A DNA stretch of 32,000 nucleotides. It comes from Candidatus Electrothrix yaqonensis (lineage in GTDB: Bacteria; Desulfobacterota; Desulfobulbia; Desulfobulbales; Desulfobulbaceae). Below the pieces are notes generated by a model, which had not been told where the DNA came from, searched no databases, and was given only the letters and a program-made list of their open reading frames with translations. Position 1 is the first letter of the stretch, and every line of letters begins with the position of its first letter. Of this stretch, positions 1,510-30,849 are shown piece after piece. The stretch is taken from assembly GCA_047651235.1 (NCBI GenBank), contig CP178758.1, forward strand, positions 2,670,001 to 2,702,000, written 5' to 3'. The translations under genes and the position numbers were made by a program.

Positions 1510-1558
1510 TTTTTTTGAGCCTTAATTTTTTGCTTCAGTAGTCAAACTTATGGGAGTA

Positions 1559-1720: not shown

Positions 1721-1780
1721 AAAAAGTAGGCTGACATAAAAACTTGGAAGAAGACCGAAGAGGAATAAGAAAGGTGGAGA

Positions 1781-2395: not shown

Positions 2396-2402
2396 AAATT
2401 AC

Positions 2403-3480: not shown

Positions 3481-3639
3481 AGTTGTTTTTTTGAAAATTT
3501 GTAATTATCTTGCCCCTTGATTCTGCAATCCTTACAGAATTTACACGCATCCACAATATTCTTCTGAGTCTTAGCATTGCCCCAATCTCTTTTGTACCAT
3601 CTCCCAAGTTTGGCTTCAAGCGTATTTTACACTTCTTGA

Positions 3640-3880
3640 ATCTTCAGTACCCGGATTGGTCTGTCTGATTTTATCTTCAAACGGGCAAAGAAGCAGTACG
3701 GCAAAAGCGTAACCAAGGAAGATATTTTCTATTATGTGTACGGCATCCTGCACAGCCCGGAATACCGCACCGCCTTTGCTTTGCCAACGACCTGAAAAAG
3801 ACGCTCCCCCGCCTGCCCCTGCTCGACAGCGCAAAAGACTTTTGGGCCTTCAGTAAAGTGGGCCGTTTTTGTACCCGCTT
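3640..3880 (+). pseudogene. C-terminal relic of a type ISP restriction-modification enzyme / N6-DNA methylase, frameshifted
   Basis: One frame reads GLSDFIFKRAKKQYGKSVTKEDIFYYVYGILHSPEYRTAFA and then stops. The family-typical continuation ANDLKKTLPRLPLLDSAKDFWAFSKVGR is in another frame starting at 3783. The shift sits at the local duplication gcctttgctttgcc. There is no upstream catalytic part. Confidence 0.6.
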
Positions 3881-3929
3881 TATGCGGTTGATGTCAACGG
3901 AAAAGAATGGACGGCAAGGAAGGAAAGGC

Positions 3930-3967
3930 AAAAAAAAACCTGCTCACCAATGAAGGCTGCGGGTTTT
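3930..3967 (-). terminator. possible intrinsic terminator downstream of tRNA-Leu
   Basis: On the minus strand an imperfect stem (cccgc...gcagg, one mismatch) is followed by a run of 9 T (3930-3938). The stem is weak. Confidence 0.3.
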
Positions 3968-4003
3968 ATAAAACGTCAAAGGACGACGTGATACTCAATA
4001 ATA

Positions 4004-6879: not shown

Positions 6880-8295
6880 CTACAAATCCCCCGATGCCTG
6901 CCCGTTCATCTCTCTGTACAGTTTCAACGCCATCAGTCCGGCAATCAGTACTCCGGCGATGAGGACAGCCCAGAGCAGCCAGTGCCGCCAGGGCAGTTTT
7001 CGGACCGGCTTAAGCACGGCGGGGTCGCCGAGAATTCTCTGCGGTCCGGCCTGCGCCGTTGTGACTAGTTTTTCTGCCTGCTGCGGCTCAACAGCCCTGA
7101 GCAGGCGATCCACCTGATAACGGGCCGCCTGCAGACCGGCACGACCATACACTAGGGTGAACGGCGGTTTGCCCTGGGCCATAAACAGCAGCTGACCGGG
7201 CAGCCAGCCCAGTTCCATATTCGGGGCCTGATCACCACTGCTGATATCCCCGGTTTCTATGCGCCAGAATCGGTCCGTAGTCGGGCTGATCCGCTGCACC
7301 CCGCTGTCCAGATCAATGCCGTCAACCGTCAGGCGGTAGGCGAGCAGCGAAGCCCGACGCCGCCAGGTACTCTCTTCATCCGGTCTGGAAAAGACCGCAA
7401 CCTGGGCCAGCGAGTTCTGCTCCGGCAGCGATATTCCGAGCTGATCCACTGGAAAGAATCCTTTGGTCTCGTACTGATACCCCCGGATTCCCCTGTTTGT
7501 CATCGGTACAGGTTCGCCGGTCATAGCCAGCAGGCTGCGGGGCCGGGCCTGCTCCTCCCGGTCATAGCCCGCTCTGACCGCAGTTATTTGTACCTCGTCT
7601 TTCCCAGCAGGCCAGGAGAGTCGCAGATAGGTCTTCTGCCGGATGCCCTGCGATATTGGAATTCTTTTCCGCACCAAGGTATGACCACCGAAACGGAGCT
7701 CGGCCAGAGAGACGGAGCGGACCAGCGGCTGCCAGCTGTTCAAGTCAGTACTGCTGTCCACCCGCACTGAGGTGGAAAACTGTTCACCCTGCCCGTCCCA
7801 GGCAAGCTCCAGCCAGTCCGCAGGATGCTCCAGACCGGAGGTATCCACCAGATAGGAACTGACCGACTTGACCGACTGCACCGTATCTTCAGAACTGTTC
7901 AGGCCGATGTCGATAATCGCGCCCTGAGCATTGGTTATGATGCGCAGATCAGAGGACAATCTGCTCTTTCCCGCGCTCTGTCCGGGCAAAGGGAAAAAGG
8001 GCAGATCCTGCGCCGGTCGCTGTTTTTCCGCTTTAATCTGCGGGCGCAGGAGATGCGGCACCGGATTTTGGGCATTGAACACCCGCAGATCACCGAGATC
8101 GGCTCTGGTGCAGCCCTGATAGACCTCGGCAGGCAGGGTCAGTTCATAGATGGGACCTGTACCGTTGAACGATACATCCATGCCAAAGGCAAAATCCTCC
8201 CGCTGCAGTGATGCAGGAGCAGGATTATCTGCAGCCCGGACAGGAACAGCGCAGAAAAGGACAAAAAGCAGGAAAAGCTGCTTCATGACTCTCAT
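6880..8295 (-). CDS. DUF3999-like secreted/anchored protein
   Basis: Signal-peptide-like N-terminus MKQLFLLFVLFCAVPVRAA and a C-terminal TM anchor WLLWAVLIAGVLIAGLMAL. It overlaps the upstream DUF2339-type gene by 4 nt (8292-8295). Family name from memory of the conserved DUF2339-DUF3999 pairing, not searched. Confidence 0.65.
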   Translation of the reverse strand: MRVMKQLFLLFVLFCAVPVRAADNPAPASLQREDFAFGMDVSFNGTGPIYELTLPAEVYQGCTRADLGDLRVFNAQNPVPHLLRPQIKAEKQRPAQDLPFFPLPGQSAGKSRLSSDLRIITNAQGAIIDIGLNSSEDTVQSVKSVSSYLVDTSGLEHPADWLELAWDGQGEQFSTSVRVDSSTDLNSWQPLVRSVSLAELRFGGHTLVRKRIPISQGIRQKTYLRLSWPAGKDEVQITAVRAGYDREEQARPRSLLAMTGEPVPMTNRGIRGYQYETKGFFPVDQLGISLPEQNSLAQVAVFSRPDEESTWRRRASLLAYRLTVDGIDLDSGVQRISPTTDRFWRIETGDISSGDQAPNMELGWLPGQLLFMAQGKPPFTLVYGRAGLQAARYQVDRLLRAVEPQQAEKLVTTAQAGPQRILGDPAVLKPVRKLPWRHWLLWAVLIAGVLIAGLMALKLYREMNGQASGDL

Positions 8296-11057
8296 GATTC
8301 CTCCTCGTTATTTTCGTTTTCCTCGGCAGATGCGGGCGGCAGGGGCGCGAAATAGGCGATGATGATGAGCAGGATACCTACAGCAAGAAAGGAGACGATC
8401 CGCTCCACTGTGCCGCTGTTGGCCAGATCAACCAGAAAGAGCTTGCTGACGGTCACCCCGATCAGGCCGATGCCGACAAACCAGATAGTTCGATGCTTCA
8501 GGCGGTGCGCGGTCACCATCAGGATCAGCGAAAGCATTCCCCAGAAAATTGACAGCGCAGCCTGATACAGGCGGGAGGCAAACATGGCATCCACGTTAAA
8601 CGGGACAGCGCCGAAATGATGGACAGAGCGGGCCAGCACGGCGTTGAGCCAGAGAAAGCAGGTTACTCCTCCGGCAGCCGCAAAGGTCTGCAATGGGATA
8701 TAGGCAGTAACATACTCTCGGCGCAGGAGGAGCCAGCGGAAAAGCAGAAGCAGGACAATAAGCTGGCTCAGCTCTAGGGGATTGAGCAGTGGGAGAAAGG
8801 GCAGCGGCTCGGCATTGCCCGGACTGAGCAGGGCGCCTGCCAGCAGCCAGACCCAGAGCAGAAAGGCGATAATGCCTCCTGCCTGCTCCTGATACTGGGC
8901 CGCATACTCGGACAGCGGCCAGAAGCGGGTCAGGCGTTCGCGCTGCACGAGCTGCAGCATAAGTAGCGGTACCAGCCCCCAGACAATGAGATTCCAGGCC
9001 CCGGTTCCGCCGGTCAGATTATGCACCTGCCAGGCGGCTTCCGAGGTCAGAATTAGGACAAGCAGGAGATAACCGCCGATATGGGTAAAACATAGGGGTC
9101 TCTCCGGCAACCGCGCACGGGCCTGCGCAAGACAGAAGTGGAGCAGGGCAAACAGCACTGGCCAGATCAGCCAGCCCAGATCGGTAGAAACATGCTGGCT
9201 GCCGAAGAATCCATGCCAGCCGATCTTGTCCGCGCCCACCAAGGCTATGACTGGCAGCAACCCCAGACTCGGCCAGGCCGCAATGGGCCAGGAGATCTTT
9301 TTTGCTGTCATCAGCAGCGCAGCGCAGCTCAGCCCGATAAAGAGCAGCACAGCATAGTCGTGATAATTATAGTATGAAACAAGCTGATAGCTCAGCTCAT
9401 TAATTCCGCCGCCGAACCACCAGCCGATCCCCCAGAGAAAAAGCGGCAGATGATGGTATTGTTCAAAACGGCGCAGACTTCCGGCCTGACCGGCCTGATA
9501 CAGATACCAGGAGGAAAACAGGGCAGACAGGCTGATGATAAGGGAACCGAGACAGATCCCGTTGAACAGGATCATCCGGTCGGCAACAGGCTGACTGGAT
9601 GCCAGAAAAAAGAAACCCGCAGCAAACTGCAGCAGTACACCGACGTTTCGGGGAAGAAGGCGGTTCTGCCGTACCCCGACCCAGATGAGAGCAGCGCCTT
9701 CCATTGCCCAGGTCACGGCAGTCCACCGGCCGCTCAGGGCCAGAGGGATGGCCAGGGTGACAAAGGCGACGCTCAGGGCCAGAAACGCCTCGGTCAGGGT
9801 GCGTATTCCCTGGCGCAGCCGCTCATTGCCTCTGTTCCAGAGAAACGAGGCCAGCCCGACATAGAACAAACTGACAGCCAAGGCGCTGAGTGCTAGGCCG
9901 TACGGCATATCCTTGACCAAGGCAGCCTGGAGGGAAAAACAGATGATCGGGGTGCCGAACACCAGCGTGCCGTCCACATAACCGCGCAGCTTGGGCGGCT
10001 GGCGGAAGGCGAACAACACACCGATGGCAGTGAACATCAGAAAAAAGAGGAGAAGAAAGGGCTCAGTGGAGGCAAAATAGCGGGGCTCATAGCTGCTCAC
10101 CCCCCAGGCGCTGCCGATCCCCAGGGTGAAAACAAAGCCCAGCAGGTTCAGCTCCCTCCAGGCCTTGAACCAGGCAATGAGCAGAATACCGCTGTTGAGC
10201 AGGGCGTAATAACTGAACAGGGCCACATGACTGCCGCTGCCGGTGGAAAGCAGAACCGGGGCGAGAAACCCGCCTGTCGTACCGAACAGGGCCAGCGATT
10301 TGGCATCCTGGAGCAGGGCCAGGGCAGCAGAGGTGCAGACCAGCCCGATCATCACGGCAAAGGCAAGGGGCATGGGCAGCAGATCATACAGCTTGAATGC
10401 CGCAAAGACATCGAGAAACAGAAGGCCGATGGCACCGCCCTGCATCAGAAGAGCAAATCCGGGACGTTTCAGCCGCACCTTCCAGCCGAAAATCAGCATG
10501 CCGATGCCTGCCAGCGCCACTCCGAGCAGGCGCAGCTCAATGGACAAAGTGAGCAGCTTGCGATCAACAGCGTATTTCAGCAGAAAGGAAACTCCGAAGA
10601 AGAGCACCAGCAGACCGACCCGCAGAACCACATTGCCCTGGGTGAAGAATTTCCACACAGCGGAAAGAACGCGTTCCACCGGATCAGAGGTATTTTTCGG
10701 GGGAGATGGGGGGGCAGGTTTCGTGCCGGTACTTTCTGTTTTTGAGGAGGGAGAAGACGGAGAGGAAGGTGCCGGTCGGACCGATTCCAGGCCGTCCTGG
10801 TCCGGCCCGGTCTCAACGGTTTTGTTTTCAACCGGGGAAGACGGTTCCGGCTCGTGTTGTTCCTCCTTTTCCGGCTGAAAAATAACCGGCTTTTCTGCCG
10901 GAGCTTCTTCTTTCTGAAGCGACTTCAGCAGGTTCTCATTGTCCGTCAGCCGTTTCTCCACCTGCCTCAGCCGCTTGCACTGCTGCACAACGATACACAG
11001 GAACAGGAGGCTGCCTGCGATAATCCCAACAAGAATTAGTACAATAATTACATCCAT
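8292..11057 (-). CDS. DUF2339-like polytopic membrane protein (921 aa)
   Basis: N-terminal TM helix, a coiled coil (LRQVEKRLTDNENLLKSLQKEE), a Pro/Ser-rich linker (PAPSSPSSPSSK...PAPPSPP), then more than 20 hydrophobic segments. Contains the TTGGFLAPVLLSTG-type motif I associate with DUF2339. GGAGGAGG lies before the ATG. Confidence 0.75.
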   Translation of the reverse strand: MDVIIVLILVGIIAGSLLFLCIVVQQCKRLRQVEKRLTDNENLLKSLQKEEAPAEKPVIFQPEKEEQHEPEPSSPVENKTVETGPDQDGLESVRPAPSSPSSPSSKTESTGTKPAPPSPPKNTSDPVERVLSAVWKFFTQGNVVLRVGLLVLFFGVSFLLKYAVDRKLLTLSIELRLLGVALAGIGMLIFGWKVRLKRPGFALLMQGGAIGLLFLDVFAAFKLYDLLPMPLAFAVMIGLVCTSAALALLQDAKSLALFGTTGGFLAPVLLSTGSGSHVALFSYYALLNSGILLIAWFKAWRELNLLGFVFTLGIGSAWGVSSYEPRYFASTEPFLLLFFLMFTAIGVLFAFRQPPKLRGYVDGTLVFGTPIICFSLQAALVKDMPYGLALSALAVSLFYVGLASFLWNRGNERLRQGIRTLTEAFLALSVAFVTLAIPLALSGRWTAVTWAMEGAALIWVGVRQNRLLPRNVGVLLQFAAGFFFLASSQPVADRMILFNGICLGSLIISLSALFSSWYLYQAGQAGSLRRFEQYHHLPLFLWGIGWWFGGGINELSYQLVSYYNYHDYAVLLFIGLSCAALLMTAKKISWPIAAWPSLGLLPVIALVGADKIGWHGFFGSQHVSTDLGWLIWPVLFALLHFCLAQARARLPERPLCFTHIGGYLLLVLILTSEAAWQVHNLTGGTGAWNLIVWGLVPLLMLQLVQRERLTRFWPLSEYAAQYQEQAGGIIAFLLWVWLLAGALLSPGNAEPLPFLPLLNPLELSQLIVLLLLFRWLLLRREYVTAYIPLQTFAAAGGVTCFLWLNAVLARSVHHFGAVPFNVDAMFASRLYQAALSIFWGMLSLILMVTAHRLKHRTIWFVGIGLIGVTVSKLFLVDLANSGTVERIVSFLAVGILLIIIAYFAPLPPASAEENENNEEES

Positions 11058-11185: not shown

Positions 11186-11782
11186 TTACGGAGTGATGGA
11201 ACGCTTCGCGGAGCTGCGTATTGCCGGAAGGCCTGCCAGAAATTTTCCCAGATTTTCCGGGGCAAGTACATGATCAACCTCTGTGCGGGCCAGTGCGGTC
11301 GCGGGCATTTCCGGGAATCTGGCCGTAGCCGGATCCTGCACCACGATCAGACCGCCGTGCTCCCTGATCCGCTGCAGACCGCAGGCACCGTCATGATTGG
11401 CACCAGTCAGGAGGACACCGACCAGCGCGGGGCCGTATACATCTGCCGCGCTTTCAAACAGCACGTCAATCGAGGGCCGGGAGTAATTGACCTTGTCATC
11501 GGCAGACAGGGAAAACGTTTCGTCCCGCTCGATCAGCAGGTGATAATCCGGCGGGGCAACATACACCCGTCCGGGAATAATTTTTTCCTTTTCCTCGGCT
11601 TCCTGCACATCCAGCAGCGAACGGCTGCCGTACAGACGGATCAGGGAATCCTCCTGATCTTTGCGCAGATGCTGGACAAGAATGATTGGCAGGCTGAACT
11701 GCGCCGGAAGCTGGGCCAGTATTGCTGTAAAGACCTCTATTCCGCCGGCTGAAGCCCCGACGACAACCGCTCTGTATTGCAT
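11186..11782 (-). CDS. cheB: CheB-type protein-glutamate methylesterase, catalytic domain only (no receiver)
   Basis: MQYRAVVVGASAGGIE (Ser), ILVQHL (His) and LLTGANHDGACGL (Asp) match the CheB catalytic triad context. Starting at Met33 of the tracked ORF leaves 4 nt after the cheR stop. Confidence 0.85.
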   Translation of the reverse strand: MQYRAVVVGASAGGIEVFTAILAQLPAQFSLPIILVQHLRKDQEDSLIRLYGSRSLLDVQEAEEKEKIIPGRVYVAPPDYHLLIERDETFSLSADDKVNYSRPSIDVLFESAADVYGPALVGVLLTGANHDGACGLQRIREHGGLIVVQDPATARFPEMPATALARTEVDHVLAPENLGKFLAGLPAIRSSAKRSITP

Positions 11783-11786
11783 GGTT

Positions 11787-12653
11787 TCACCTGTGCGCAG
11801 GAGCATTCCGCAGAGTATTCTGCACAATCTGTTTCCGGTATATCCTGTTTTTTTCGTCCACCCGGGTATATCGCGCAAAAATATCTGAAAACCGTAACGA
11901 CTCCTTGGCTCCGAGACAGAGAAACCCGCCGCGGATCAGACTTTCATCAAAAAGATTCAGCACCCGGTCCCGCAACTTCCTGTCAAAATAAATCATTACA
12001 TTACGGCACAGAATCAGGTGCATCTCGCCAAACACCTGGTCGGAGACCAGATTATGGTTGGCAAAGGTGATGCTGCTCCGCAGTTCGCTGTCTATGAGAA
12101 TGTATTCATGATCAGCGTGATAGTATCTGCTGAACGACTCTGCCGAACCGCTCGCCTGATGATTCTCCGTATAGTTCCTGACCTGTTTAAGGGGAAAAAT
12201 TCCTTTTTTCGCTTTTGCCAGAGCTTGGTCATTGATGTCGGTGGCAAAGATGGTCGCCTTGTCCAGCAGTTCTTCTTCTTGCAGCAGGATAGCCATTGAG
12301 TAGGCTTCCTCGCCTGTTGCGCAGCCGGCCAGCCATATTCTGATAAAGGGATAGGTTTTGAGCAGCGGTACGATTTCTTTCCGCACTGCCCGATAAAAGG
12401 AGGGATCGCGGAACATTTCCGTCACCGTGATGGAAAAGTCAATCAGCAGCTGCTGAAACAGGGCAGGCTCGCGAAGGACTCTGGCCAGCAGGACACCTGC
12501 GGTGGCGCAGCCTGTTTTCTCCAGAAACTGCTTGACCCGTCTGGTGATGCTTGCCTTGGCATAGTTGCGGAAGTCATAACCGTAACGGAGAAAAATCCCC
12601 TGCAGCAGCAGGGTGATTTCTGTTTCCTCAATTGTTTTATCCGGTACATTCAT
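11787..12653 (-). CDS. cheR: CheR-type protein-glutamate O-methyltransferase
   Basis: TEMFRDPSFY and IWLAGCATGEEAYSMAILL (SAM-binding region), with the length expected for CheR. Confidence 0.9.
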   Translation of the reverse strand: MNVPDKTIEETEITLLLQGIFLRYGYDFRNYAKASITRRVKQFLEKTGCATAGVLLARVLREPALFQQLLIDFSITVTEMFRDPSFYRAVRKEIVPLLKTYPFIRIWLAGCATGEEAYSMAILLQEEELLDKATIFATDINDQALAKAKKGIFPLKQVRNYTENHQASGSAESFSRYYHADHEYILIDSELRSSITFANHNLVSDQVFGEMHLILCRNVMIYFDRKLRDRVLNLFDESLIRGGFLCLGAKESLRFSDIFARYTRVDEKNRIYRKQIVQNTLRNAPAHR

Positions 12654-12702
12654 TATTGTTTCCCGATGCAGCAGCCCCTTTTATAAATGCGGTTTCAAAC
12701 CG

Positions 12703-15700
12703 CTACCTGTAGAGCCAGACCCGCATCATGGACATGAGCCTGTCCACATCAACCGGCTTTGCCAGGTAGTCACTGGCTCCGGCTTTAATGCATTTTTCTC
12801 GGTCCTCCTTCATGGCCTTGGCGGTCAGGGCAATGACAGGCAGCTTCCAGAACTTTTTCTGCTCACGTATCTTCTGCATCGCTTCATAGCCGTCCATTTC
12901 CGGCATCATGATATCCATCAGCACTATATCGATTCCCTGCCCGCGAGCAAGTTGCTTCAGGGCGCTTCTGCCATTTTCAGCAATAATCACCTCCATGCCT
13001 TTCTGTTCCAGAATGCCGGACAGAGCATAGACATTCCGCATGTCGTCATCCACCAGGAGAACCTTTTTGCCCTGAAATATCTTATCCCGATCATACAGGT
13101 CAGCAATGATCTGCTGTTTTTGAGCAGGCATGCTTTCCACCATTCTATGGAGAAAAAGCGAGGTTTCATCAAGCAGCCGCTCTTTAGAACGGGCATCTTT
13201 AATAATGATAGAATCCGAATACCTGTTCAGTTCCCGTTCTTCTTCCCGGGTGAGTTCTCTGCCGGTATAGATGATGACTGGTGGAATGCTGGCTGCCCCG
13301 TCTGTTTCATTCTCGGTCAGCTGGCGGAGCAGTTCAATGCCGTTGCAGTCGGGCAGACCGAGATCGAGCACCATGCAGTCAAACTGCTGCACGGCCAGCA
13401 GCTCCCTGACCTCTCTGCCGGTTTTCGCTTCAAAGGTCTTTGTGTCGCTGTTGCCGACAAGCTCGACAAGAGCAGCCCGCAGGGTATCATCATCCTCCAC
13501 CACCAGCAGTTTTTTTATCTTCCTGTTGATGACCGATTCAAAGCGGTCAAAGGCCTCGCCAAGCTGCTCTCTGGAGACCGGTTTTGTCAGAAAGCCTATG
13601 GCGCCCTGATGCAGGGCCTTGCGGCTCACCTCTTCCGCCGACATCATGTGTACCGGAATATGGCGGGTGGCGGCATTGGATTTCAGGCTGTTCAGGACAG
13701 TCCAGCCGTCAATGCCGGGCAGGCGTATGTCAAGAATAATCCCGTCCGGGCGGTATTCTTCTGCCAGCTGCAGTCCTTCTTCACCGCAGGCTGTCACCAG
13801 CGCCTTGAAATCAGCTTCATGGCACTGCTGCAGGAGGACTTCGGCAAACCGCTGATCGTCTTCAATAATCAGCATGACTTTGTCTTTGTCAGTGAGTTGG
13901 CTGCGGTCATCCGGGATAGATTGGATAAGTTGATTCTGTTGTGCCGGAATGTTTTTCCTTGCCGGTTCAGCAGTTTGACCAGCCAAAGTCGGCAGCGGCG
14001 GTATCTTCTTTACATTCTCCGGTTTCTCATTCAGCTTCTTCACCTGTTCATTCATCTGCTCATTATTTTCTCTGCTGCTGACCGGCAGATACAGGGTAAA
14101 GGTCGAGCCTTTGTCCGCTTCGCTGACCAGAGCAATCTCACCGCCGAGCAGGGCAGCCAGTTCTCTGGAGATGGATAGACCGAGACCGGTGCCGCCGTAT
14201 TTCCGGGCGGTAGAACCGTCGGCCTGCTGGAAGGCCTCAAAGATCGCCTTCTGCTTTTCAGCCGGAATCCCGATACCGCTATCCTTCACACTGATTGCGA
14301 TGGTCTGTTCAGGCTCCAGCTTCTCCGACAGTCCGGCTGCCCTTTCCTTCATCCGGGCAAAAGTCAGGTCAATCCAGCCTTCAGTCGTAAATTTGATGCT
14401 GTTGCCGAGAAAATTTTTCAGGATCTGTTCCACCCGTTTACGGTCGGTGATGATCACCGGAGGCAGACCGTCGGCAATGGTTATAGAAAAATCAAGCCCT
14501 TTCTTTTCCGCCATATGCCGGAACAAGGTGCGGGCTGTCTCCGCCAGATCAGCCAACCGGACTTCCGCCATTTCTGTGACTACCCGCCCGGCCTCGATCC
14601 TGGCCAGATCCAGAATTTCATTGATCAGGTTCAGGAGATCATGACCCGACTCCACAATGATATCGGCTGAGCGCTGCTGCTTTTTGCTGAGCGTTCTCTC
14701 TCTGTTTTCAGCAAGCGACTGGGCCAGCAGCAGCAGGCTGTTCAGCGGGGTACGCAGTTCATGACTCATATTGGCGAGAAACTCGGACTTGTATTTTGAT
14801 GCCAGGGCCAAGTCCTTGGACCGCTCCTCTATTCTCTCCTTTGCCTCCATGAGTTCCTGGTTGCGCAGCCTGATTTTATCCTTCTGTGCCACTAAAGCTT
14901 CTGATTTTTCTTCAAGCTCGGCATTGGTGGCCTGCAGTTCTTCCTGCCGGCTCTCCAGCTCCTGCTGAAATTCCTTCAGCGCAGTGGTCTGGGACTCCAG
15001 TTCCTCATTTGTTGCCTGCAGTTCTTCACTCTGCTGCTTGAGCTCCTGGGACTGCAGCTGGGTTTCTGCAAGCAGGTCCTCCACTTGCTGACGGTTTTGC
15101 GCCGACCTGAAAGCAACAGCGATATTCTCCGTTACATCGTTGAGAAAATCCATCACTTCATCAGAGAATTCTCTGAAGGCAGCAAATTCAACAACGCCGA
15201 TCAGGTCATTTTCATGGGAAAAGGGAACAGCCAGTATATTGCAGGGAGACGCATCGCCCAGGGTGGAGTTGATACGGACATAGTCCTCAGGCAGCTCGGT
15301 CACGGAAATCAGCGTGTTTTCCAGAGCCGCCTGGCCAGCAAGTCCTTCACCGATTCTGATCCGGCTGTTGATGCTCCTGCGCTTATGAAAGGCATAACTT
15401 CCGGTCAGTACCAGGGTCTTTTCGTCTCTATTCGTTTCATCCTGACGGGCAAGGTATAATGAGGCCATCTGCGCTTCCAGAAATCTGGCCAGATAGGTGA
15501 CCACATTCTGGGCCAATGCCCGGACATCCAGCTCCCCCCGCATCCTGTCGGCCAGTTCCGCCATCCCGGTTTTATACCGGAAATTCTTGGCCACCCTGTC
15601 TGCCATGCGGTCCAGGGCATCGGCCATCTGACCGATTTCATCCAGGCGCCGCATATGAAGACGCTGCTTGAAATCGCCGGAGGCAATGCTGTCCGCTATT

Positions 15701-16824
15701 CCGGCAGCGCGGACAATAGGTTTGCTGAGCGAACGAACTATCAGGACGGCCAAGGTGCCCACTAGACAAAAGGTCACCAGAAAGACCGCCATGATCTTCC
15801 TTTTCATCCTCCTGTCCGCCTCTGCACGTGCGCTGTTCATATCAGCTCCGGTTTTCAGCGCCGCTGCCTTGTCAAACTCACAGAGCAACGCCCAGCGGAT
15901 ACCGAAGATATCTACCGGTCTCCAGGAAGAAAGCACTGTTTCTCCTCGATAATCTTTTATGATACCGGTTCCGGTTTCGCCGTTCAGTGCCTTTCTGACA
16001 GCAGCAGTCGTGACTTTATTATCCTGTCTGAAGGACTCCTCTCTGCTGTAATTTTCTGGATCAAGAACAGAATCCGAGCGCATATATCCGTCCGCCCCGA
16101 CAAGATAGGCCTCCAGCCCCTGGTCCTTTTTTGACCCCATTTTGATCATATCCCGTAATGCCCTTGTTGAGGGCTGTATAGCCAGATAGCCGATGACCGT
16201 CCCCTTTTCATCCTCCACCCGGACCATAAGAAAAGCTGACGGCTCATTATTGTGCGGTGGATAGGGCGCGTAATCACCAAAGGAGATCCCGGCATCAGGC
16301 GTTGCCTGCAACCGGTCAAAGGCTATGCCCAGAGAGGTACTCCTGAGCGGTTCTCTGGTAAGAGACATACCGAGGTCAGACGCCTTGTTCGTAGAATAGG
16401 CAATATATCCGTTATTGTTGATCAGAAAGACATCTTCCCAACTGAAATACAGGGAGATATCCCTGAACCACTGATCATATTTTCCGGCAAGGGTATGCCA
16501 TTCCTCAGAGTCGGTCGAGTTGCCCCCTTCCGTAAAGGCACGATGAAAGGCTCTGAAAATATCCGGAAGCCAAGGAAGATTTCTGACCATAGACAACTTG
16601 CCCGACATCTCCTTGAAAAAATAAATAATCTGCTTTTCCTTGATCTGGCACATTCCTGAGAGCTGATCATAGGCCGTCTGTTCCACAGCAGACACCCCCT
16701 GATTCCCGACTGTCTTCAGCCCTTCCGAGGCAGTCATCAGGAGGGTCCAGCTGATAAACAGCAGGGGGATAATCCCCATACCGAGGTGGGATATGATCAA
16801 CTTCGCACCCAGGTTAAATCTCAT
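12703..16824 (-). CDS. hybrid sensor histidine kinase: TM - periplasmic Cache-like domain - TM - HAMP - GAF - coiled coil - HisKA - HATPase - REC x3
   Basis: H-box SHELRTPLN (His688). G-boxes DSGIGIP and GGTGLGLSIS. Three receivers with acceptor contexts ILDIRLPGIDG, MVLDLGLPDCNG and VLMDIMMPEMDG. TM helices at ~12-32 and ~344-364. Confidence 0.9.
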   Translation of the reverse strand: MRFNLGAKLIISHLGMGIIPLLFISWTLLMTASEGLKTVGNQGVSAVEQTAYDQLSGMCQIKEKQIIYFFKEMSGKLSMVRNLPWLPDIFRAFHRAFTEGGNSTDSEEWHTLAGKYDQWFRDISLYFSWEDVFLINNNGYIAYSTNKASDLGMSLTREPLRSTSLGIAFDRLQATPDAGISFGDYAPYPPHNNEPSAFLMVRVEDEKGTVIGYLAIQPSTRALRDMIKMGSKKDQGLEAYLVGADGYMRSDSVLDPENYSREESFRQDNKVTTAAVRKALNGETGTGIIKDYRGETVLSSWRPVDIFGIRWALLCEFDKAAALKTGADMNSARAEADRRMKRKIMAVFLVTFCLVGTLAVLIVRSLSKPIVRAAGIADSIASGDFKQRLHMRRLDEIGQMADALDRMADRVAKNFRYKTGMAELADRMRGELDVRALAQNVVTYLARFLEAQMASLYLARQDETNRDEKTLVLTGSYAFHKRRSINSRIRIGEGLAGQAALENTLISVTELPEDYVRINSTLGDASPCNILAVPFSHENDLIGVVEFAAFREFSDEVMDFLNDVTENIAVAFRSAQNRQQVEDLLAETQLQSQELKQQSEELQATNEELESQTTALKEFQQELESRQEELQATNAELEEKSEALVAQKDKIRLRNQELMEAKERIEERSKDLALASKYKSEFLANMSHELRTPLNSLLLLAQSLAENRERTLSKKQQRSADIIVESGHDLLNLINEILDLARIEAGRVVTEMAEVRLADLAETARTLFRHMAEKKGLDFSITIADGLPPVIITDRKRVEQILKNFLGNSIKFTTEGWIDLTFARMKERAAGLSEKLEPEQTIAISVKDSGIGIPAEKQKAIFEAFQQADGSTARKYGGTGLGLSISRELAALLGGEIALVSEADKGSTFTLYLPVSSRENNEQMNEQVKKLNEKPENVKKIPPLPTLAGQTAEPARKNIPAQQNQLIQSIPDDRSQLTDKDKVMLIIEDDQRFAEVLLQQCHEADFKALVTACGEEGLQLAEEYRPDGIILDIRLPGIDGWTVLNSLKSNAATRHIPVHMMSAEEVSRKALHQGAIGFLTKPVSREQLGEAFDRFESVINRKIKKLLVVEDDDTLRAALVELVGNSDTKTFEAKTGREVRELLAVQQFDCMVLDLGLPDCNGIELLRQLTENETDGAASIPPVIIYTGRELTREEERELNRYSDSIIIKDARSKERLLDETSLFLHRMVESMPAQKQQIIADLYDRDKIFQGKKVLLVDDDMRNVYALSGILEQKGMEVIIAENGRSALKQLARGQGIDIVLMDIMMPEMDGYEAMQKIREQKKFWKLPVIALTAKAMKEDREKCIKAGASDYLAKPVDVDRLMSMMRVWLYR
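14797..15093 (-). other. Glu/Gln-rich coiled coil with duplicated EELQATN(E/A)ELE motif, between the GAF and HisKA domains of the kinase
   Basis: Residues ~578-676 read QQVEDLLAETQLQSQELKQQSEELQATNEELESQTTALKEFQQELESRQEELQATNAELEEKSEAL. The two motif copies lie at 14992-15027 and 14908-14943. Confidence 0.8.
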
Positions 16825-17861
16825 CTTTTTTCTCCCGGAGAATCCTTTTTTTCTTCAGCCGGGTTCCCTGTCCGCTGAACTGTTGTCTGTTTATCTGCAA
16901 TGACGCGGTTTCTGCCGTTCTGTTTGGCCTGATACAGTGCCTTATCAGCAGCAGAAACCATGCAGCCGAAGGAATGGTGGGATTCTTTCCGGTAGGTGGT
17001 CACACCCATACTGACAGTCATTTTCGTGGAGTATACGCCGTCATCGATCAGATAGTCCGCACATATCCGGCGGATTTTTTCAGCTTTGCAGAGAGCTCCC
17101 TTCATACCGGTCTGGGGAAGCAGAATGATAAACTCCTCCCCGCCGAACCGGAAAACAAGATCAGATTCTCTGACATGGGCGAGCAGGAGAGCGGAAAATT
17201 CTTTCAGCACATAATCACCGAATTCATGGCCGAAGGTATCGTTAATTTTTTTAAAATAATCAATATCAAGCATAATAATGGAAAGTTCACTGCCGTGACG
17301 GCGGCACCGGCAGAATTCCTGCTTCAGACAAGTCACCAGATGACGGCGGTTGTACAGCCCTGTCAGGTCATCGTGGGTGGAGAGCCGTTCCAGCTGCTTA
17401 TTTTTTTCCAGAACAAGCTGTTTTGTTTTCTCAAGTTCACGGATAGTCTCCCGCAGCCTGATCTGCTGAAGATATATTTCAATAAAGAACCGTATCTTGC
17501 CTGCCAGGAATTCCGGGTTGAACGGCTTGGTGATGAAGTCCACAGCCCCGGACTCATACCCTTTAAAAATATGAAACTCATCAGAATAGATGGCGGACAG
17601 GAAGATAATCGGCAGATTGGCCGTCTGTTTTCTGTTTCGGATAAGCTGCGCCAGTTCATATCCGTCCATTTCCGGCATCTGGACATCAAGGATAGCCAGG
17701 GCAAACTCGTGCCGCAGAAGCTCCACGAGGGCATTATTGCCGCTTGTCGCCTTGATAAACTCTGCATCAATACCGCTGAGAACGCCGCTGAGTGAGGTTT
17801 CCAAGGCAACAAGATTATTCGGCTTATCATCAACGATAAGTACTTTGACCCTGTCCGTCAT
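16821..17861 (-). CDS. response regulator with GGDEF output (diguanylate cyclase, PleD/WspR-like)
   Basis: REC domain (LIVDDKP, ILDVQMPEMDG, FITKPF), a coiled linker, and a GGDEF domain with GGEEF at 17130-17144. An RESD motif lies exactly 5 residues upstream (RxxD I-site). The stop overlaps the kinase start by 4 nt. Confidence 0.9.
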   Translation of the reverse strand: MTDRVKVLIVDDKPNNLVALETSLSGVLSGIDAEFIKATSGNNALVELLRHEFALAILDVQMPEMDGYELAQLIRNRKQTANLPIIFLSAIYSDEFHIFKGYESGAVDFITKPFNPEFLAGKIRFFIEIYLQQIRLRETIRELEKTKQLVLEKNKQLERLSTHDDLTGLYNRRHLVTCLKQEFCRCRRHGSELSIIMLDIDYFKKINDTFGHEFGDYVLKEFSALLLAHVRESDLVFRFGGEEFIILLPQTGMKGALCKAEKIRRICADYLIDDGVYSTKMTVSMGVTTYRKESHHSFGCMVSAADKALYQAKQNGRNRVIADKQTTVQRTGNPAEEKKDSPGEKR

Positions 17862-17934: not shown

Positions 17935-17963
17935 ATTATATTTTATCACAGTGAAATTTTAAA
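17935..17963 (-). promoter_or_regulatory. candidate sigma70 promoter of the GGDEF-kinase-cheRB operon
   Basis: The minus strand reads TTTAAA-N17-TATAAT, about 75 nt upstream of the ATG at 17861. Confidence 0.3.
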
Positions 17964-18342
17964 GGTAATACGTTGAATAATTCCGTTGTCTATCATCCGT
18001 CTTTCCTGTCCGCCCGCATACAGATTTTCCGCTGCATTTTTCGGGACCGGAAAACAGGTGCAGCTGACGAACGCAGACTGGGCCTGCCACCCATCGCTTT
18101 TTGCTGATTAGCGATAGATATATGATTTAAAATAAAGCGTTACACAAAGATGTTCTCTTTTTACTTCCCTTGCATGTATGTGTACAGTAAGCGCATCTTG
18201 CGAAAGAAGTTTCATCCGGTCTGCGGAGTGTTCTTCCCGGACTCAAGAAAAGTCCTCTGTATAAGGAATGAAAATTTAATAACAACGGAACTTGCTGACA
18301 GGTCATTGACAATTTCATAGTTGCGTTTATTCTCATCCGGTT

Positions 18343-18534
18343 ATGAAGATAAAAACATATTCTCCTGAGATAGAAACGCGAATGCGTAATTTTTACGGCA
18401 GCCTGTCTGAAAAAGACCGCCGTCGATACGCCGCAGTTGAAGCGGAAAAGTTCGGATACGGCGGCATAACGTATATATGCGACGTGTTGCGGTGTGATTC
18501 TGACCGGGTCCGTCGCGGGATGAATGAACTGAAA
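18343..18534 (+). pseudogene. N-terminal stub (~64 aa) of an ISAzo13-family transposase
   Basis: LSEKDRRRYAAVEAEKFGYGGITYICDVLRCDSDRVRRGMNELK matches my memory of the ISAzo13 N-terminal HTH region (...RLWAAAEAxxxGxGGIxxVxxATGxSxxTIxRGxxEL). Similarity is lost after ~18534. Confidence 0.55.
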
Positions 18535-18536
18535 AT

Positions 18537-18692
18537 GACAACGGGACTGCCCGGCGTGGAACATCCCAGCATAGCACCGGGATTGGGGCAATGTACGGTC
18601 AGCTCATTACCGTCGGTGAGGAGGATGTCGGCGAGAAACCGCTTGTAGCGTCTGAGCAGGATGCCGGTCTGCCAGATCGGGGGAAGCTGCAT
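18537..18692 (-). pseudogene. sfsA: 5' stub (~52 aa) of sfsA (sugar fermentation stimulation protein A family)
   Basis: GILLRRYKRFLADILLTDGNELTVHCPNPGAMLGCSTPGSPV is collinear with the E. coli SfsA N-terminus (LIQRYKRFLADV...LHCPNTGAMTGC..PG). The rest of the ~230-aa protein is absent. Confidence 0.7.
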
Positions 18693-19005
18693 GAAACCGA
18701 AACAAGAGAGTTATTCCTTAAATAACGCAGATTGAAATCCCAAAGAGCGGCGCTGATATTGACAGCATTGTCGTCGAAATTTTTCTGGGATTGCGGAATC
18801 AATGAATTTGAGATCGTGACCGAAGCCTTCTCAGTCATACCAGAAAGAGCGGAACAGAGCAAGACGCGATTGTCCTGCGTTGAGATGATGATGGATTTTA
18901 ATGGGCAGTCCGGAGGTGAAGTGAAGGTGGTGTTGAAGAGGTGGGTTTGTAGCGGGAGAATAACCTTGGCAAATGCTAAATTGGATACCACATCATGCAT
19001 AACCA

Positions 19006-19572
19006 TCATGACTCGTTTTTTTTATTTGATATGCAAGACAATTCTAATATTGGTTGTTCAGCAGGTCTTGGCTTATCGATAACAAACGACCGGGCTCCTT
19101 TCCTCTCTTTGATCCAAGCTATGCTTAAATCGTCCCAAATGGTTTGATAAGAATCATGAAAATAATTAATTACATCTAAATTGAGTTGTTCGTCAGTCTT
19201 TCCTGCAAGATAATGATCAAGGTCATCTCGTAAATGGTAGAATCGAGCTTTTGCAAGCTCGTGCTCGATCCAAAGAGCGTGATAATTAAAGAAAGGTTCT
19301 AACGCGGTAAGAAGAGTGACAATTGCGCCAAATGCGAAAGCAATATTTTTAAAGGCTGGCTCAAACCCTTGTATCTGGAGGCCAAGTAAAATGGTGGCGA
19401 CAGCAGATAACGTCAGTCGAATGAGGATGATAACAGTTGCTTTAAATTGATTGCGAGTTCGTTTTTTCTGGGCATTATTGAGCGACCACTCAACACGCTT
19501 TATCAATAGATTAGCCTTGGTTCGGGCTTCAGACGTTTGCACTTTCTCGTCATCAGATAATGGCTTATCCAT
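19006..19572 (-). CDS. SLATT / DUF4231-like two-TM protein (188 aa), stand-alone
   Basis: The architecture is an N-terminal helix (RVEWSLNNAQKKRTRNQFK), two adjacent TM helices (ATVIILIRLTLSAVATILLGL and IAFAFGAIVTLLTALEPFF), then NYHALWIEHELAKARFYHLRDDLDHYL, which resembles the conserved post-TM helix of SLATT domains. The gene is AT-rich. Assignment from memory. Confidence 0.55.
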   Translation of the reverse strand: MDKPLSDDEKVQTSEARTKANLLIKRVEWSLNNAQKKRTRNQFKATVIILIRLTLSAVATILLGLQIQGFEPAFKNIAFAFGAIVTLLTALEPFFNYHALWIEHELAKARFYHLRDDLDHYLAGKTDEQLNLDVINYFHDSYQTIWDDLSIAWIKERKGARSFVIDKPRPAEQPILELSCISNKKNES

Positions 19573-23077: not shown

Positions 23078-24235
23078 ATGAATGATATTCAACAACTGCA
23101 TATTGACCGCGAACGGCTGGCTGATACCTTTATCCGGCTGTGTGAAACCGACAGCCTCTCCCGGAAGGAGGGCCGCATGGCTGAACTGGTCACCAAAATC
23201 CTGTACAGTCTTGATGCACCGCTGCCCTTTGAAGACGATTCTGCTGAGCAGACCGGCTCGGAATGCGGCAATCTGATCTTCCGTTTTGCTGGCGAACCGG
23301 ACCGGGAACCTCTGTTTTTTGCCTGCCATCTGGACACGGTGGAGCCGGGAATCGGAATCAAGGTCGTCCGCAGCGAAGATGATATCTTTACCAGCAGCGG
23401 CAACACGATCCTGGGTTGTGACGATAAATCCGGCATTGCCGCCATGATTGAGGTTTGGCGGGTAATCCGGGAAAACAACCTGCCCCATGCGCCGATGGAA
23501 TTTATTTTCACCACCTGCGAAGAAATCGGCCTGCTGGGCGCCAAGGCCCTGAACCCCCAGCATATCCGGGCAAAAATGGGCTATGCTCTTGATTCCAATG
23601 AATTCGGCAGGGTGGTTATCGGGGCACCGGCATCCAACCGGCTCCGTATTACTGTCAAAGGCGTAGCGGCCCATGCCGGGCTGCATCCTGAAACAGGCGT
23701 CAATGCGATCACCTTGGCCGGAAAGGCCCTTGCAGCAGCTCCCTGCGGCAGAATCGACGAAGAAACCACGATCAATTTCGGCACAATTCAGGGTGGGGCT
23801 GCCTCAAATATTGTCCCGGAAGAGGTCGTTATTGAAGGCGAAGCGCGCAGTCATTCTCCGGAAAAACTGGAACAGGTGACCCGTGCAGCTGAACAGGCTT
23901 TCCGTAAAACTGTCGAGGACTGGAGTGATCCTGCAGGCACAGCGCGGGGTGTACCTGTCCTGAACTTCAAAGCTGAGGAAGATTTCCCGATCATGCAGCT
24001 GACTGCTGAAGATGCGGTGATCCGCCGTCTTGATCAGGCTGCGGAGCGCATCGGTATGGAGCTGCGTCATGAAGTTGCCGGAGGCGGCAGTGATGCGAAT
24101 ATTCTGAACGGCTACGGCCTGCAAACCGCCATCATTGCCACCGGTATGACCAATGTTCATTCCACGGACGAGCAGATCGGTCTTGAAGATATGGTGCAGC
24201 TTACCCGGCTGCTGCTCTCGCTTGTCAGCGGATAA
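23078..24235 (+). CDS. M20/M25/M40 family metallopeptidase (peptidase T-like)
   Basis: CHLDTV, GCDDKSGIAAM and TCEEIGLLGAK are the metal-ligand motifs of the M20 family. AAGGGAGAG lies upstream of the ATG. Confidence 0.85.
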   Translation: MNDIQQLHIDRERLADTFIRLCETDSLSRKEGRMAELVTKILYSLDAPLPFEDDSAEQTGSECGNLIFRFAGEPDREPLFFACHLDTVEPGIGIKVVRSEDDIFTSSGNTILGCDDKSGIAAMIEVWRVIRENNLPHAPMEFIFTTCEEIGLLGAKALNPQHIRAKMGYALDSNEFGRVVIGAPASNRLRITVKGVAAHAGLHPETGVNAITLAGKALAAAPCGRIDEETTINFGTIQGGAASNIVPEEVVIEGEARSHSPEKLEQVTRAAEQAFRKTVEDWSDPAGTARGVPVLNFKAEEDFPIMQLTAEDAVIRRLDQAAERIGMELRHEVAGGGSDANILNGYGLQTAIIATGMTNVHSTDEQIGLEDMVQLTRLLLSLVSG

Positions 24236-24251
24236 CCCGCCGGATAACCGA

Positions 24252-26114
24252 ATGGAACCGATGGACAGACCGTTCAGAAAGCAGAAAAGAATTGGCGAGC
24301 TTTGTATCGAGAAAGGTCTGATTTCACAAAGAGACCTGCTCCAGGCTCTAAAACTGCAGAAGATACAGTCCATTCCTCTGGGCAGGGTTCTGCTGAACCT
24401 GAACAAGATCAGAAAAAAAGATCTTGCCGCAGTGCTTGCCGAACACTTTGGGGTTCCGCAGATATCGCTGAAAAATCATGCGATTGATTATAAACTGCAG
24501 AGCAGGCTGAATGAGCATTATGCAAAAGAGAAAAATCTGATCGTCCTGCGGGATGCTGAGGGGAATGTAAAAGTTGCCTCTCAGGAACCGACTCAGCATC
24601 TCTTTTACGATATCCGGAAGCAGCTTGATCCGAATCTGCAGTACCAGCTGTGCATGGCGCCTGCAGAGGAAATCGGTTATGCGCACAGAACCATTTATGC
24701 TGAAAAGGGGAAAAGGAAAATAACCTATTTTCCCGGAGGCTGCGTCTGCACCCGGATGGTGCAGAGATCCAGGGCGGAAGACGGCCAGCTGACCATGACG
24801 CTGGTCGATAAAATTCTGCAGATCGGCCAGCGGGTTGAGGCCAGTGATATTCACTTGGAACCCCTGAAGGAAAGATTCCGGATCAGATACAGAATTGAAG
24901 GAGACCTGAATGAGATTGATGTCAACAACTATGAACTGCAGATCCTCTATCAATGCGTGATCGCCAGGTTCAAGATTCTCGGCAAACTTGCCCTGGACCT
25001 GAAGGATCATCCCCAGGGCGGTTCCTTCAGCATCCAGTATGACAACGGCAGAGAACTGCAGAATATTGATTACCGCATCTCAGTTCTGCCGACCAGATAC
25101 GGCGAAGCCATGGTTCTCCGGGTGCTCAATCAGAGCAGAATGGAGAACATTCAGCTGCAGGATCTCGGCATGACCGGCTTCATACACAGGGAGTATGTAC
25201 GCCAGATCCAGCGGCCTCAGGGCCTGATTATCATTACAGGCCCGACAGGAAGCGGAAAATCCACCACACTGTATGCAACAATTAAGCATATTGCCGGCAG
25301 CAAAAAAATACTGACTGCAGAAAATCCCATTGAATATGCCTACCCTGAAGAGTATTCCATAACTCAGACTCAGGTCAACAGAGCCCGTGGCGTAGGGTAT
25401 GATGAGCTGATGGATGAATTCATGCGGCATGATCCGGATGTCATCATGCTCGGAGAAGCACGCAATAAAAGATCGAGCAGAACAGCCGTGGAAGCAGCCC
25501 AGACAGGGCATCTGGTCTTTACAACCATGCATACCGAAGACAGCACCGGGGTTGTGCCGAGAATGCGGGAACTGCTTGAAATGAAGGCGGAGCAGTTCCT
25601 CGGTCAGACCAAAGCGGTCATGGCGCAGATGCTGGTCAAAAAGGTCTGTGCGCATTGTGCTGAACAATATACGCCGGATCAGGAGGATATTCTCTTCTAT
25701 TTCGGCGGTATTGACCCGGTATTTGCGTTCTATCGGGGCACTGGCTGCGAACACTGCGATTATGACGGCGCAGACGGACGGATCGGCATGTATGAATTAT
25801 GGCTGCCCACCAGAAAAGTTGTTGCTGAGATGCGGGACGCCGGAACGGATTATGAAATTCGTCAGTCAGCAATCGCTCACGGGCTCAAACCGCTGTATCT
25901 GGCTGCCATTGATCTTATGCAGCAGGGAAAAATCACCCTGAAAAGAGCAATTGAAGCTGTGCCGAATATTGCGGAAGACAGAGAATTGTTGGGGAAAACC
26001 CGTATTGAGCGCTATCTGCATAACCTGCATTCAGGCGGCCTGCCCGCCGTTCAGAAATATGAAGTCGGATCAAAAGTCGGATCAGGATGGTTTGTTTATG
26101 ACCAGGGCTCTTGA
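24252..26114 (+). CDS. GspE/PulE/PilB-family secretion ATPase with an MshEN-type N-terminal domain
   Basis: Walker A GPTGSGKST, Asp box, Walker B DVIMLGE, His box GHLVFTTMHT, tetra-Cys CAHC...CEHC. The N-terminus carries a tandem RIGELCIEKGLISQRDLLQALKLQ / PLGRVLLNLNKIRKKDLAAVLAEH motif. Start moved to the ATG at 24252, after the peptidase stop. Confidence 0.9.
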   Translation: MEPMDRPFRKQKRIGELCIEKGLISQRDLLQALKLQKIQSIPLGRVLLNLNKIRKKDLAAVLAEHFGVPQISLKNHAIDYKLQSRLNEHYAKEKNLIVLRDAEGNVKVASQEPTQHLFYDIRKQLDPNLQYQLCMAPAEEIGYAHRTIYAEKGKRKITYFPGGCVCTRMVQRSRAEDGQLTMTLVDKILQIGQRVEASDIHLEPLKERFRIRYRIEGDLNEIDVNNYELQILYQCVIARFKILGKLALDLKDHPQGGSFSIQYDNGRELQNIDYRISVLPTRYGEAMVLRVLNQSRMENIQLQDLGMTGFIHREYVRQIQRPQGLIIITGPTGSGKSTTLYATIKHIAGSKKILTAENPIEYAYPEEYSITQTQVNRARGVGYDELMDEFMRHDPDVIMLGEARNKRSSRTAVEAAQTGHLVFTTMHTEDSTGVVPRMRELLEMKAEQFLGQTKAVMAQMLVKKVCAHCAEQYTPDQEDILFYFGGIDPVFAFYRGTGCEHCDYDGADGRIGMYELWLPTRKVVAEMRDAGTDYEIRQSAIAHGLKPLYLAAIDLMQQGKITLKRAIEAVPNIAEDRELLGKTRIERYLHNLHSGGLPAVQKYEVGSKVGSGWFVYDQGS

Positions 26115-30821: not shown

Positions 30822-30849
30822 GAAACTCTTTTATACAAAGGTTGACCGG

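Follow-up and report, generated by a model that had tools for sequence, protein, structure and literature searches.

A hybrid histidine kinase encoded with CheR, receiver-less CheB and a REC-GGDEF regulator in Candidatus Electrothrix yaqonensis: a probable relative of the RsbK/RsbM and Cfc systems

The Wsp system of Pseudomonas (WspA-F and WspR) is composed of the methyl-accepting chemotaxis protein (MCP) WspA, CheW-type couplers, a CheA-type kinase and WspF, a CheB that possesses a receiver domain. Methylation of a hybrid histidine kinase has been described in Bacillus cereus, where the CheR-type protein RsbM is reported to methylate RsbK on its signalling helix (S-helix); according to PMC4574943, which cites Chen et al. 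2012, this was assayed in vitro with 14C-labelled S-adenosylmethionine (SAM). In Pseudomonas putida a CheR and a CheB are encoded with the hybrid kinase CfcA, which functions in the synthesis of cyclic diguanylate (c-di-GMP). The locus discussed here resembles each of these systems in part. It consists of four genes, for a response regulator with receiver and GGDEF domains (REC-GGDEF), a membrane hybrid histidine kinase, a CheR and a CheB without receiver, and it is located in a stretch of 32,000 nucleotides (nt) from the cable bacterium Candidatus Electrothrix yaqonensis (assembly GCA_047651235.1, contig CP178758.1, positions 2,670,001 to 2,702,000). The whole stretch is referred to as the window, and positions are counted from its first letter.

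The methylation of RsbK is reported to repress sigma-B signalling; it is required for the repression and acts as an inhibitory lock, and B. cereus is said not to have a paired methylesterase (PMC4574943). The same paper mentions 127 RsbK-like kinases in 10 phyla; names of methylated residues were not found in it. The genomic association of RsbK with CheR was noted by de Been and colleagues, as cited in PMC12848376. Salt has been reported as the stimulus in P. putida. For the same species, PMC4951495 and PMC6849547 indicate that both His496 of CfcA and Asp65 of CfcR are needed for c-di-GMP synthesis by CfcR, a REC-GGDEF-EAL regulator. PMC4951495 states that the CheR/CheB pair of the cfc cluster takes no part in chemotaxis. 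CfcA has been described as a CHASE-GAF-kinase with three receivers in a preprint that is silent on cfcB, cfcC and protein methylation (bioRxiv 10.1101/2024.11.25.625174), and a part played by CfcB and CfcC in methylating CfcA was not found in the P. putida Cfc papers that were consulted. Further relatives are BmsA of P. alkylphenolica and the 3082-3079 cluster of P. brassicacearum, both cited in PMC8175716. On CheR-methylated kinases beyond RsbK nothing further was found in the literature searched, and on the chemotaxis genes of cable bacteria nothing usable was found there.

Composition of the locus and comparison with the described systems

The four genes probably constitute a two-component module of the family to which RsbK/RsbM and CfcA/CfcB/CfcC belong, in which CheR and CheB would tune the S-helix of the kinase and c-di-GMP would be the output. 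We give this reading a probability of about 0.72. It is almost certain that the four genes act together. The type of module is already known, though little studied, and the present one departs from the members described so far in the dCache sensor, the REC-GGDEF gene within the operon and the lack of a cfcD-like kinase. A preliminary description of the locus had proposed that CheR and CheB act on the kinase with c-di-GMP as output, and this is supported by the MCP-free synteny, by a Glu-Glu heptad motif in the kinase and by the published precedent. It had also held that such modules had not been characterised biochemically, which is wrong for the methyltransferase half in view of the in vitro methylation of RsbK by RsbM reported in PMC4574943. 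The claim of novelty fails: a profile built on the CheR of this locus itself retrieved an RsbK/RsbM locus of a sigB cluster and the cfcA-cheR-cheB locus of P. putida.

The genes are co-directional on the minus strand (17861 to 11186) in the order REC-GGDEF, hybrid kinase, cheR and cheB (Table 1). The stop codon of the REC-GGDEF gene and the start codon of the kinase gene overlap in an ATGA at 16824-16821, and the two genes are translationally coupled. The kinase gene and cheR are separated by 49 nt and cheR and cheB by 4 nt, and no convincing terminator was found between the four genes. On all of these points the listing of open reading frames (ORFs) and the raw sequence agree with the preliminary description. 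Pfam bears out the domain assignments that it had made (REC-GGDEF; Cache/HAMP/GAF hybrid kinase with three receivers; CheR; receiver-less CheB), and its statement that the window has no MCP, CheA or CheW gene also stands, as the large ORFs of the window gave zero Pfam matches to MCPsignal, CheW and CheA-type domains.

Table 1. Position of the module genes, of the regions of the kinase discussed in the text and of a possible promoter (all on the minus strand)
Feature	Position	Strand	Basis and remarks
REC-GGDEF response regulator, predicted diguanylate cyclase output, 346 aa	16821..17861	-	Pfam Response_reg 4.5e-22, GGDEF 4.1e-48
Membrane hybrid histidine kinase, 1373 aa	12703..16824	-	Pfam and translation
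S-helix, kinase residues 579-683, proposed methyl-accepting region	14776..15090	-	Heptad listing
Motif copy 1, EELQATNEEL, residues 600-609	14998..15027	-	Translation; begins 88 residues before His688
Motif copy 2, EELQATNAEL, residues 628-637	14914..14943	-	Translation; begins 60 residues before His688
Codon of phospho-accepting His688, H-box	14761..14763	-	Translation; H-box nearly invariant across the family
CheR-type SAM-dependent protein-glutamate methyltransferase, 288 aa	11787..12653	-	Pfam CheR_N and CheR
CheB methylesterase, catalytic domain only, 198 aa	11186..11782	-	Pfam CheB_methylest 8e-56, residues 6-181; start ATG 4 nt after cheR stop
Promoter-like TTTAAA-17 nt-TATAAT	17935..17963	-	About 74 nt 5' of the REC-GGDEF start codon; 10/12 consensus matches, pattern match only

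The kinase possesses the architecture of the family, that is a sensor, HAMP, GAF, a long S-helix, HisKA, HATPase_c and C-terminal receivers. Its full order is a first transmembrane helix, a periplasmic dCache_1 domain (residues 128-313), a second transmembrane helix, HAMP (361-411), GAF (432-572), the S-helix, HisKA (679-746), HATPase_c (794-915) and three Response_reg domains, all as delimited by Pfam. In the translation all three receivers retain the acidic pocket, the Asp, the Thr/Ser and the Lys. Neither an HPt domain nor a C-terminal pentapeptide was found in the kinase by Pfam and in the translation, and no HPt domain was found elsewhere in the window.

In the REC-GGDEF protein the acceptor Asp of the receiver lies within LAILDVQMPEMDG. 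The active site is GGEEF, and a RESD sequence (RxxD) forms the I-site five residues before it. According to Pfam the protein has no EAL domain. A T2SSE/MshE-type secretion ATPase is encoded 6 kb away (24153-26114, plus strand) and begins with a domain of the MshEN type (Pfam E = 4.8e-6). As MshEN modules bind c-di-GMP, the ATPase could be an effector of the REC-GGDEF cyclase.

By its sequence, the CheR belongs to the kinase-linked RsbM/CfcB subfamily. With the equivalog model for chemotaxis CheR it scores only 84 bits, where the cut-off is 435 bits, and it is 45-56% identical to the CheRs of the 80 loci described below, with values of 48% for P. putida and 51% for a Neobacillus sigB-cluster locus. 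Among solved structures B. subtilis CheR (5ftw) comes nearest to it, and the motifs IWLAGCATGEEAYS and CRNVMIYF are conserved in the alignment. In CheB, for which Pfam finds no receiver domain, Ser11 (GASAGG), His38 (VQHL) and Asp130 (NHDG) fall on conserved positions in the alignment with the solved CheB domains 3sft and 6ymz, and we take these three residues to be the catalytic triad.

The likeness to B. cereus is best followed in a retrieved locus of Neobacillus drentensis (L029), which encodes STAS, an anti-sigma kinase, a sigma factor, REC-PP2C, ferritin, a kinase of 905 aa and CheR. We take this locus to be a sigB cluster of the B. cereus type (rsbV-rsbW-sigB-rsbY-ferritin) with RsbK and RsbM. 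Its kinase has the architecture CHASE3-HAMP-GAF-HisKA-HATPase-REC and is 33% identical to that of the window. As in B. cereus RsbK-RsbM, the locus of the window has a kinase with an extracytoplasmic sensor followed by HAMP, GAF, S-helix, HisKA, HATPase and REC, and the CheR-type gene comes directly after it. However, the sensor is CHASE3 in RsbK and dCache_1 in the window kinase, RsbK has one receiver and the window kinase three, and the output regulator is the REC-PP2C protein RsbY in B. cereus and REC-GGDEF in the window. The receiver-less CheB of the window has no paired counterpart in B. cereus, and in the RsbK module the repeat of the S-helix reads SEELQ[AT]Q and not EELxx[ST]NEEL. Genes for PP2C, STAS, anti-sigma and sigma-B-type proteins were not found by Pfam among the operon genes and the other large ORFs of the window.

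The resemblance to the Cfc system extends to the esterase. A retrieved locus of P. putida (L044) encodes a CHASE3-GAF-HisKA-HATPase-3xREC kinase, CheR, a CheB of 191 aa and a REC-HisKA-HATPase protein, and it matches the published cfcABCDE cluster. The CfcA-type kinase of this locus is 44% identical to the window kinase and collinear with it over residues 403-1371, which is the whole cytoplasmic part, and its motif EELKSANEEL is of the same type. Both systems have a GAF hybrid kinase with three receivers, a CheR, a receiver-less CheB and a regulator of the REC-GGDEF type, which CfcA activates in P. putida and so raises c-di-GMP (PMC4951495; bioRxiv 10.1101/2024.11.25.625174) and which is the probable target of the kinase in the window. 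They differ in the sensor, which is CHASE3 without recognisable HAMP in CfcA and dCache_1 with HAMP in the window kinase, and in the gene for a REC-HisKA-HATPase protein that follows cheB in P. putida (the cfcD position) but not in the window. In addition, the REC-GGDEF-EAL protein CfcR is encoded elsewhere in P. putida, whereas the REC-GGDEF gene of the window overlaps the start of the kinase gene. The logic of Wsp, in which a sensor in the membrane and a pair of methylating and demethylating enzymes are combined with a REC-GGDEF protein for c-di-GMP synthesis as output, is shared by the locus. The MCP, CheW, CheA-type kinase and receiver-bearing CheB of Wsp have no counterpart in the window by Pfam.

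The signalling helix and its motif

The S-helix joins the GAF domain to the H-box (residues 579-690) as an acidic coiled coil of about 14 uninterrupted heptads, or about 100 residues; a stretch of 90 residues in which charges were counted has 24 Asp/Glu against 11 Lys/Arg. In an AlphaFold2 model of kinase residues 425-760, residues 555-706 form one continuous helix through His688, with a mean pLDDT of 85; the input was a 53-sequence alignment for which the kinase homologue search supplied only fragments of less than 600 aa. The helix contains two copies of a motif. The first has the candidate methyl-accepting pairs E600/E601 and E607/E608, and the second has the candidate pair E628/E629. Both copies, through EELQAT, match the consensus [EQ][EQ]xx[AGST][AGST] of MCP methylation sites, reportedly given by Terwilliger in 1986 and by Alexander and Zhulin in 2007, and their Glu-Glu pairs are seven residues apart. 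The methylation helices of MCPs likewise form an acidic coiled coil with Glu-Glu pairs at a spacing of seven residues. The folds are different, however, in that the S-helix is a parallel dimer helix that leads into the HisKA domain of dimerisation and histidine phosphotransfer (DHp), whereas an MCP has an antiparallel four-helix hairpin with a tip that binds CheA and CheW.

The MCP consensus was considered as the motif that defines the family and was rejected, as the window kinase conforms to it but no more than 26 of 67 kinases of the family do. It was replaced by the empirical signature EEL-x-x-[TSA]-N-EE-L, which has a conserved Asn at the seventh position and occurs at least once in 65 of 67 non-redundant kinases adjacent to CheR. 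Because so few of the kinases fit the MCP consensus, the family motif is akin to the methylation site of MCPs without being the same. All 97 copies of the motif are in one heptad register relative to the phospho-accepting His (-116, -95, -88, -81, ... -39). The commonest position is -88 and the second -60, and the window kinase occupies both. The strict motif is present in 54 of 70 adjacent kinases and in 3 of 77 other kinases of the same loci (Fisher p = 6e-22); among all 4044 ORFs of the loci it was found in 59, every one of them a kinase. Fusion proteins of CheB, CheR, PAS and kinase domains probably have similar EELQSTNEEL repeats, which are not used as evidence here.

Occurrence in other genomes and genomic surroundings

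The preliminary description had proposed a survey of cheR-cheB pairs beside HisKA kinases that lack MCP signal domains, and a survey based on CheR bears out the arrangement. With an alignment of the CheR subfamily as the profile and one genome per species, at least 600 candidate stretches were obtained, of which 598 were confirmed; the best 80 were examined. Counts that refer to 89 loci combine these 80 with nine loci fetched earlier. Adjacency was anchored on the start of homology, as the longest-ORF calls over-extend genes in high-GC genomes. The 80 loci span Pseudomonadota, Desulfobacterota, Myxococcota, Bacillota, Cyanobacteria, Bacteroidota, Gemmatimonadota, Acidobacteriota, Planctomycetota, Verrucomicrobiota, Deinococcota and others. 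A homologous GAF-HisKA hybrid kinase lies directly 5' of CheR in 69 of the 76 loci with at least 3.5 kb upstream, and a CheB with a homology region free of a receiver lies directly 3' of CheR in 74 of 89. An N-terminal receiver is absent from every CheB of the family that was examined. The conserved signalling hairpin of MCPs occurs in only 2 of 89 loci, both times at a distance of 6-7 kb and on the other strand, and neither CheA nor CheW was found in nine related loci annotated with Pfam.

The closest homologues of the CheR come from cable bacteria (Candidatus Electrothrix/Electronema, Desulfobulbaceae). In the genomes closest to that of the window, Electrothrix GW3-4 and Electronema halotolerans, all four genes recur in unchanged order between unrelated flanks, and the cassette is thus inherited as a unit. 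The recurrence of the four genes in these two cable-bacterium genomes, and of the core of kinase, CheR and CheB across phyla, also argues that the arrangement is not due to chance. A co-directional REC-GGDEF gene is found beside the module in 8 further loci. Distant CheR homologues with 55-60% identity occur in Myxococcota, Chloroflexi and other metagenomic contigs, again with a recurring gene order: a kinase of the type [CHASE3 or 4HB_MCP-HAMP]-GAF-HisKA-HATPase-REC(n), CheR, receiver-less CheB and often a REC-HisKA-HATPase gene.

Some loci depart from this order. Kinase and CheR are found without CheB in a locus of Thermodesulfobacteriota (L009) and in Bacillales/Paenibacillus loci (L029, L051, L053, L055, L058, L062, L065, L070, L073 and L079). 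In L009 PilZ genes flank the module on both sides. In a locus of Sericytochromatia (L066, 8985-11429) the catalytic domain of CheB is fused to a REC-HisKA-HATPase protein, and this fusion ties CheB to the second, cfcD-like kinase that trails cheB in many loci. A metagenomic protein of 444 aa (P0127), in which GAF, S-helix and DHp are joined to the C-terminal half of a CheR, was rejected as a true fusion; it probably arose through a deletion or as a chimera of the assembly.

Within the operon of the window, a GC-rich hairpin followed by a T-run is located at 12598-12613 on the coding strand of cheR, in the first 20 codons. It is probably a chance occurrence, and it could attenuate cheRB relative to the kinase. 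Downstream, a DUF2339 membrane protein (8292-11057, minus strand) and a DUF3999 protein (6880-8295, minus strand) are encoded with a 4-nt overlap. This pair is on the same strand as cheB, 128 nt from it, with no terminator-like site between, and in the loci of Electrothrix GW3-4 and Electronema it does not adjoin the module. The operon is bordered on its upstream side by a region of lower GC (18127-19572, minus strand) with a SLATT-domain protein (19006-19572; NCBIfam SLATT_1 1.2e-18, Pfam DUF4231 weak) and, after it, two small ORFs without family match; this region could represent an islet of conflict or defence genes. The stretch 1000-4000 has a GC content of 0.37-0.41, against about 0.53 elsewhere in the window, and contains a fragment of an IS30-family transposase (1101-1439), a TIGR04255-family protein (2734-3480) and two ORFs without match; mobile DNA of which a remnant is left is the probable explanation. 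At 26551-31794 on the minus strand are two hybrid kinases with a 4-nt overlap, CHASE5-HAMP-HisKA-HATPase-REC (28575-30821) and REC-PAS-HisKA-HATPase-REC (26551-28578), preceded by an ORF with weak similarity to solute-binding proteins (30850-31794); none of these has an HPt domain.

Proposed mechanism and alternative explanations

In the mechanism that we favour, the periplasmic dCache domain would sense a small ligand, and the signal would pass through HAMP and GAF into the acidic coiled coil. The coiled coil continues into the helix of His688, and the S-helix would in this way set the activity of the kinase core formed by the DHp and catalytic domains. CheR, with SAM, would methyl-esterify Glu residues of the S-helix, for which E600/601, E607/608 and E628/629 are the candidates, and the receiver-less CheB would strip the methyl groups off again. 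The neutralisation of charge may alter the packing of the coiled coil above the phospho-accepting His and so shift the balance of kinase and phosphatase activity. Methylation would probably also alter how the inhibitory receivers are docked or held, as has been proposed for RsbK. The kinase would then phosphorylate the co-translated REC-GGDEF protein, which would make c-di-GMP. It is an inference that this kinase is methylated and that it passes phosphate to REC-GGDEF, and the sites and the direction of the effect are likewise inferred.

Several points weigh against tuning of the S-helix with c-di-GMP as output. The kinase has three receivers and no HPt, and phosphate may reach REC-GGDEF by a direct route or via an unlinked HPt. 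Canonical MCPs or other substrates of CheR and CheB may be encoded outside the 32 kb that were inspected. The MCP consensus, as noted, is found in only 26 of 67 family kinases, and the evidence on the proteins of the cable bacterium is computational.

It is unlikely that the substrates of CheR and CheB are canonical MCPs with genes in other parts of the genome, the adjacency of the kinase reflecting co-regulation only. Inspection was confined to 32 kb of a contig of about 3.7 Mb, and the conserved motifs and the catalytic residues typical of chemotaxis enzymes are intact in both proteins, which would be consistent with such a role. However, in 87 of 89 loci, which represent many phyla, the CheR clade is linked with kinases of the S-helix type rather than with MCP genes, and the motif is a specific mark of the adjacent kinases. 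The CheR is also far below the cut-off of the chemotaxis equivalog, the CheB does not have the receiver that depends on CheA, and the orthologous pair of P. putida is stated in PMC4951495 to take no part in chemotaxis. It is less likely still, and in our opinion very improbable, that the two enzymes modify a partner other than the coiled coil, such as the receivers of the kinase, the REC-GGDEF protein or the hybrid kinases at 26551-30821. Mapped methylated residues were not found in the literature for any member that contains CheB, and the additional REC-HisKA-HATPase gene that follows cheB in many loci, and is fused to it in L066, could be a partner of this kind. The S-helix of the upstream kinase nevertheless has the sole conserved Glu-Glu heptad signature in the loci, and the methylation of RsbK was reported on the S-helix (PMC4574943). 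The motif was not seen in the translations of the kinases at 26551-30821, although the motif search proper covered the loci and not these ORFs.

What methylation of the S-helix would do is a separate question. One tentative but real possibility is that it acts as a gate or a set-point and not as adaptation, with CheR locking the kinase off as RsbM does with RsbK. The receiver-less CheB would then erase methyl groups either constitutively or under a control of its own and would set a threshold or provide a slow memory, without stimulus feedback of the chemotaxis type. Several observations fit with a gate: in B. cereus methylation is needed for repression and no esterase is paired (PMC4574943), Bacillales/Paenibacillus loci of the same family have CheR without CheB, and the receiver used for feedback from CheA is absent from the CheB homology region in all retrieved loci (in L066 a REC-kinase is fused after it). 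However, CheB is kept beside CheR in 74 of 89 loci, which argues that reversibility has been selected, and feedback at the level of the substrate is possible if CheR and CheB discriminate conformations. In MCPs, the two enzymes can discriminate receptor conformations without phospho-feedback. We regard it as doubtful that the CheR/CheB pair provides a genuine, reversible and stimulus-coupled adaptation of a HisKA kinase that operates without CheA, CheW, MCP and phospho-feedback. The classical phospho-feedback from CheA is missing because CheB has no receiver, and therefore any adaptation must rest on conformation-selective action of the enzymes. If such adaptation exists, the feedback would come solely from the preference of CheR and CheB for one conformation of the coiled coil. 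The design would be widespread, with at least 80 examined species from more than ten phyla and hundreds more candidates, and c-di-GMP in the cable bacterium would track changes in the dCache ligand and not its absolute level.

If tuning of the S-helix by CheR and CheB is correct, glutamate methylation, a hallmark of chemoreceptors, would be a general and widespread means of tuning classical histidine kinases. The module described here would be a compact case, with the sensor, the writer, the eraser and the c-di-GMP output within one operon. The candidate residues E600/601, E607/608 and E628/629, together with the motif in its fixed register, are direct targets for experiments. For cable bacteria, the module would be a candidate link between a chemical cue from outside the cell and c-di-GMP.

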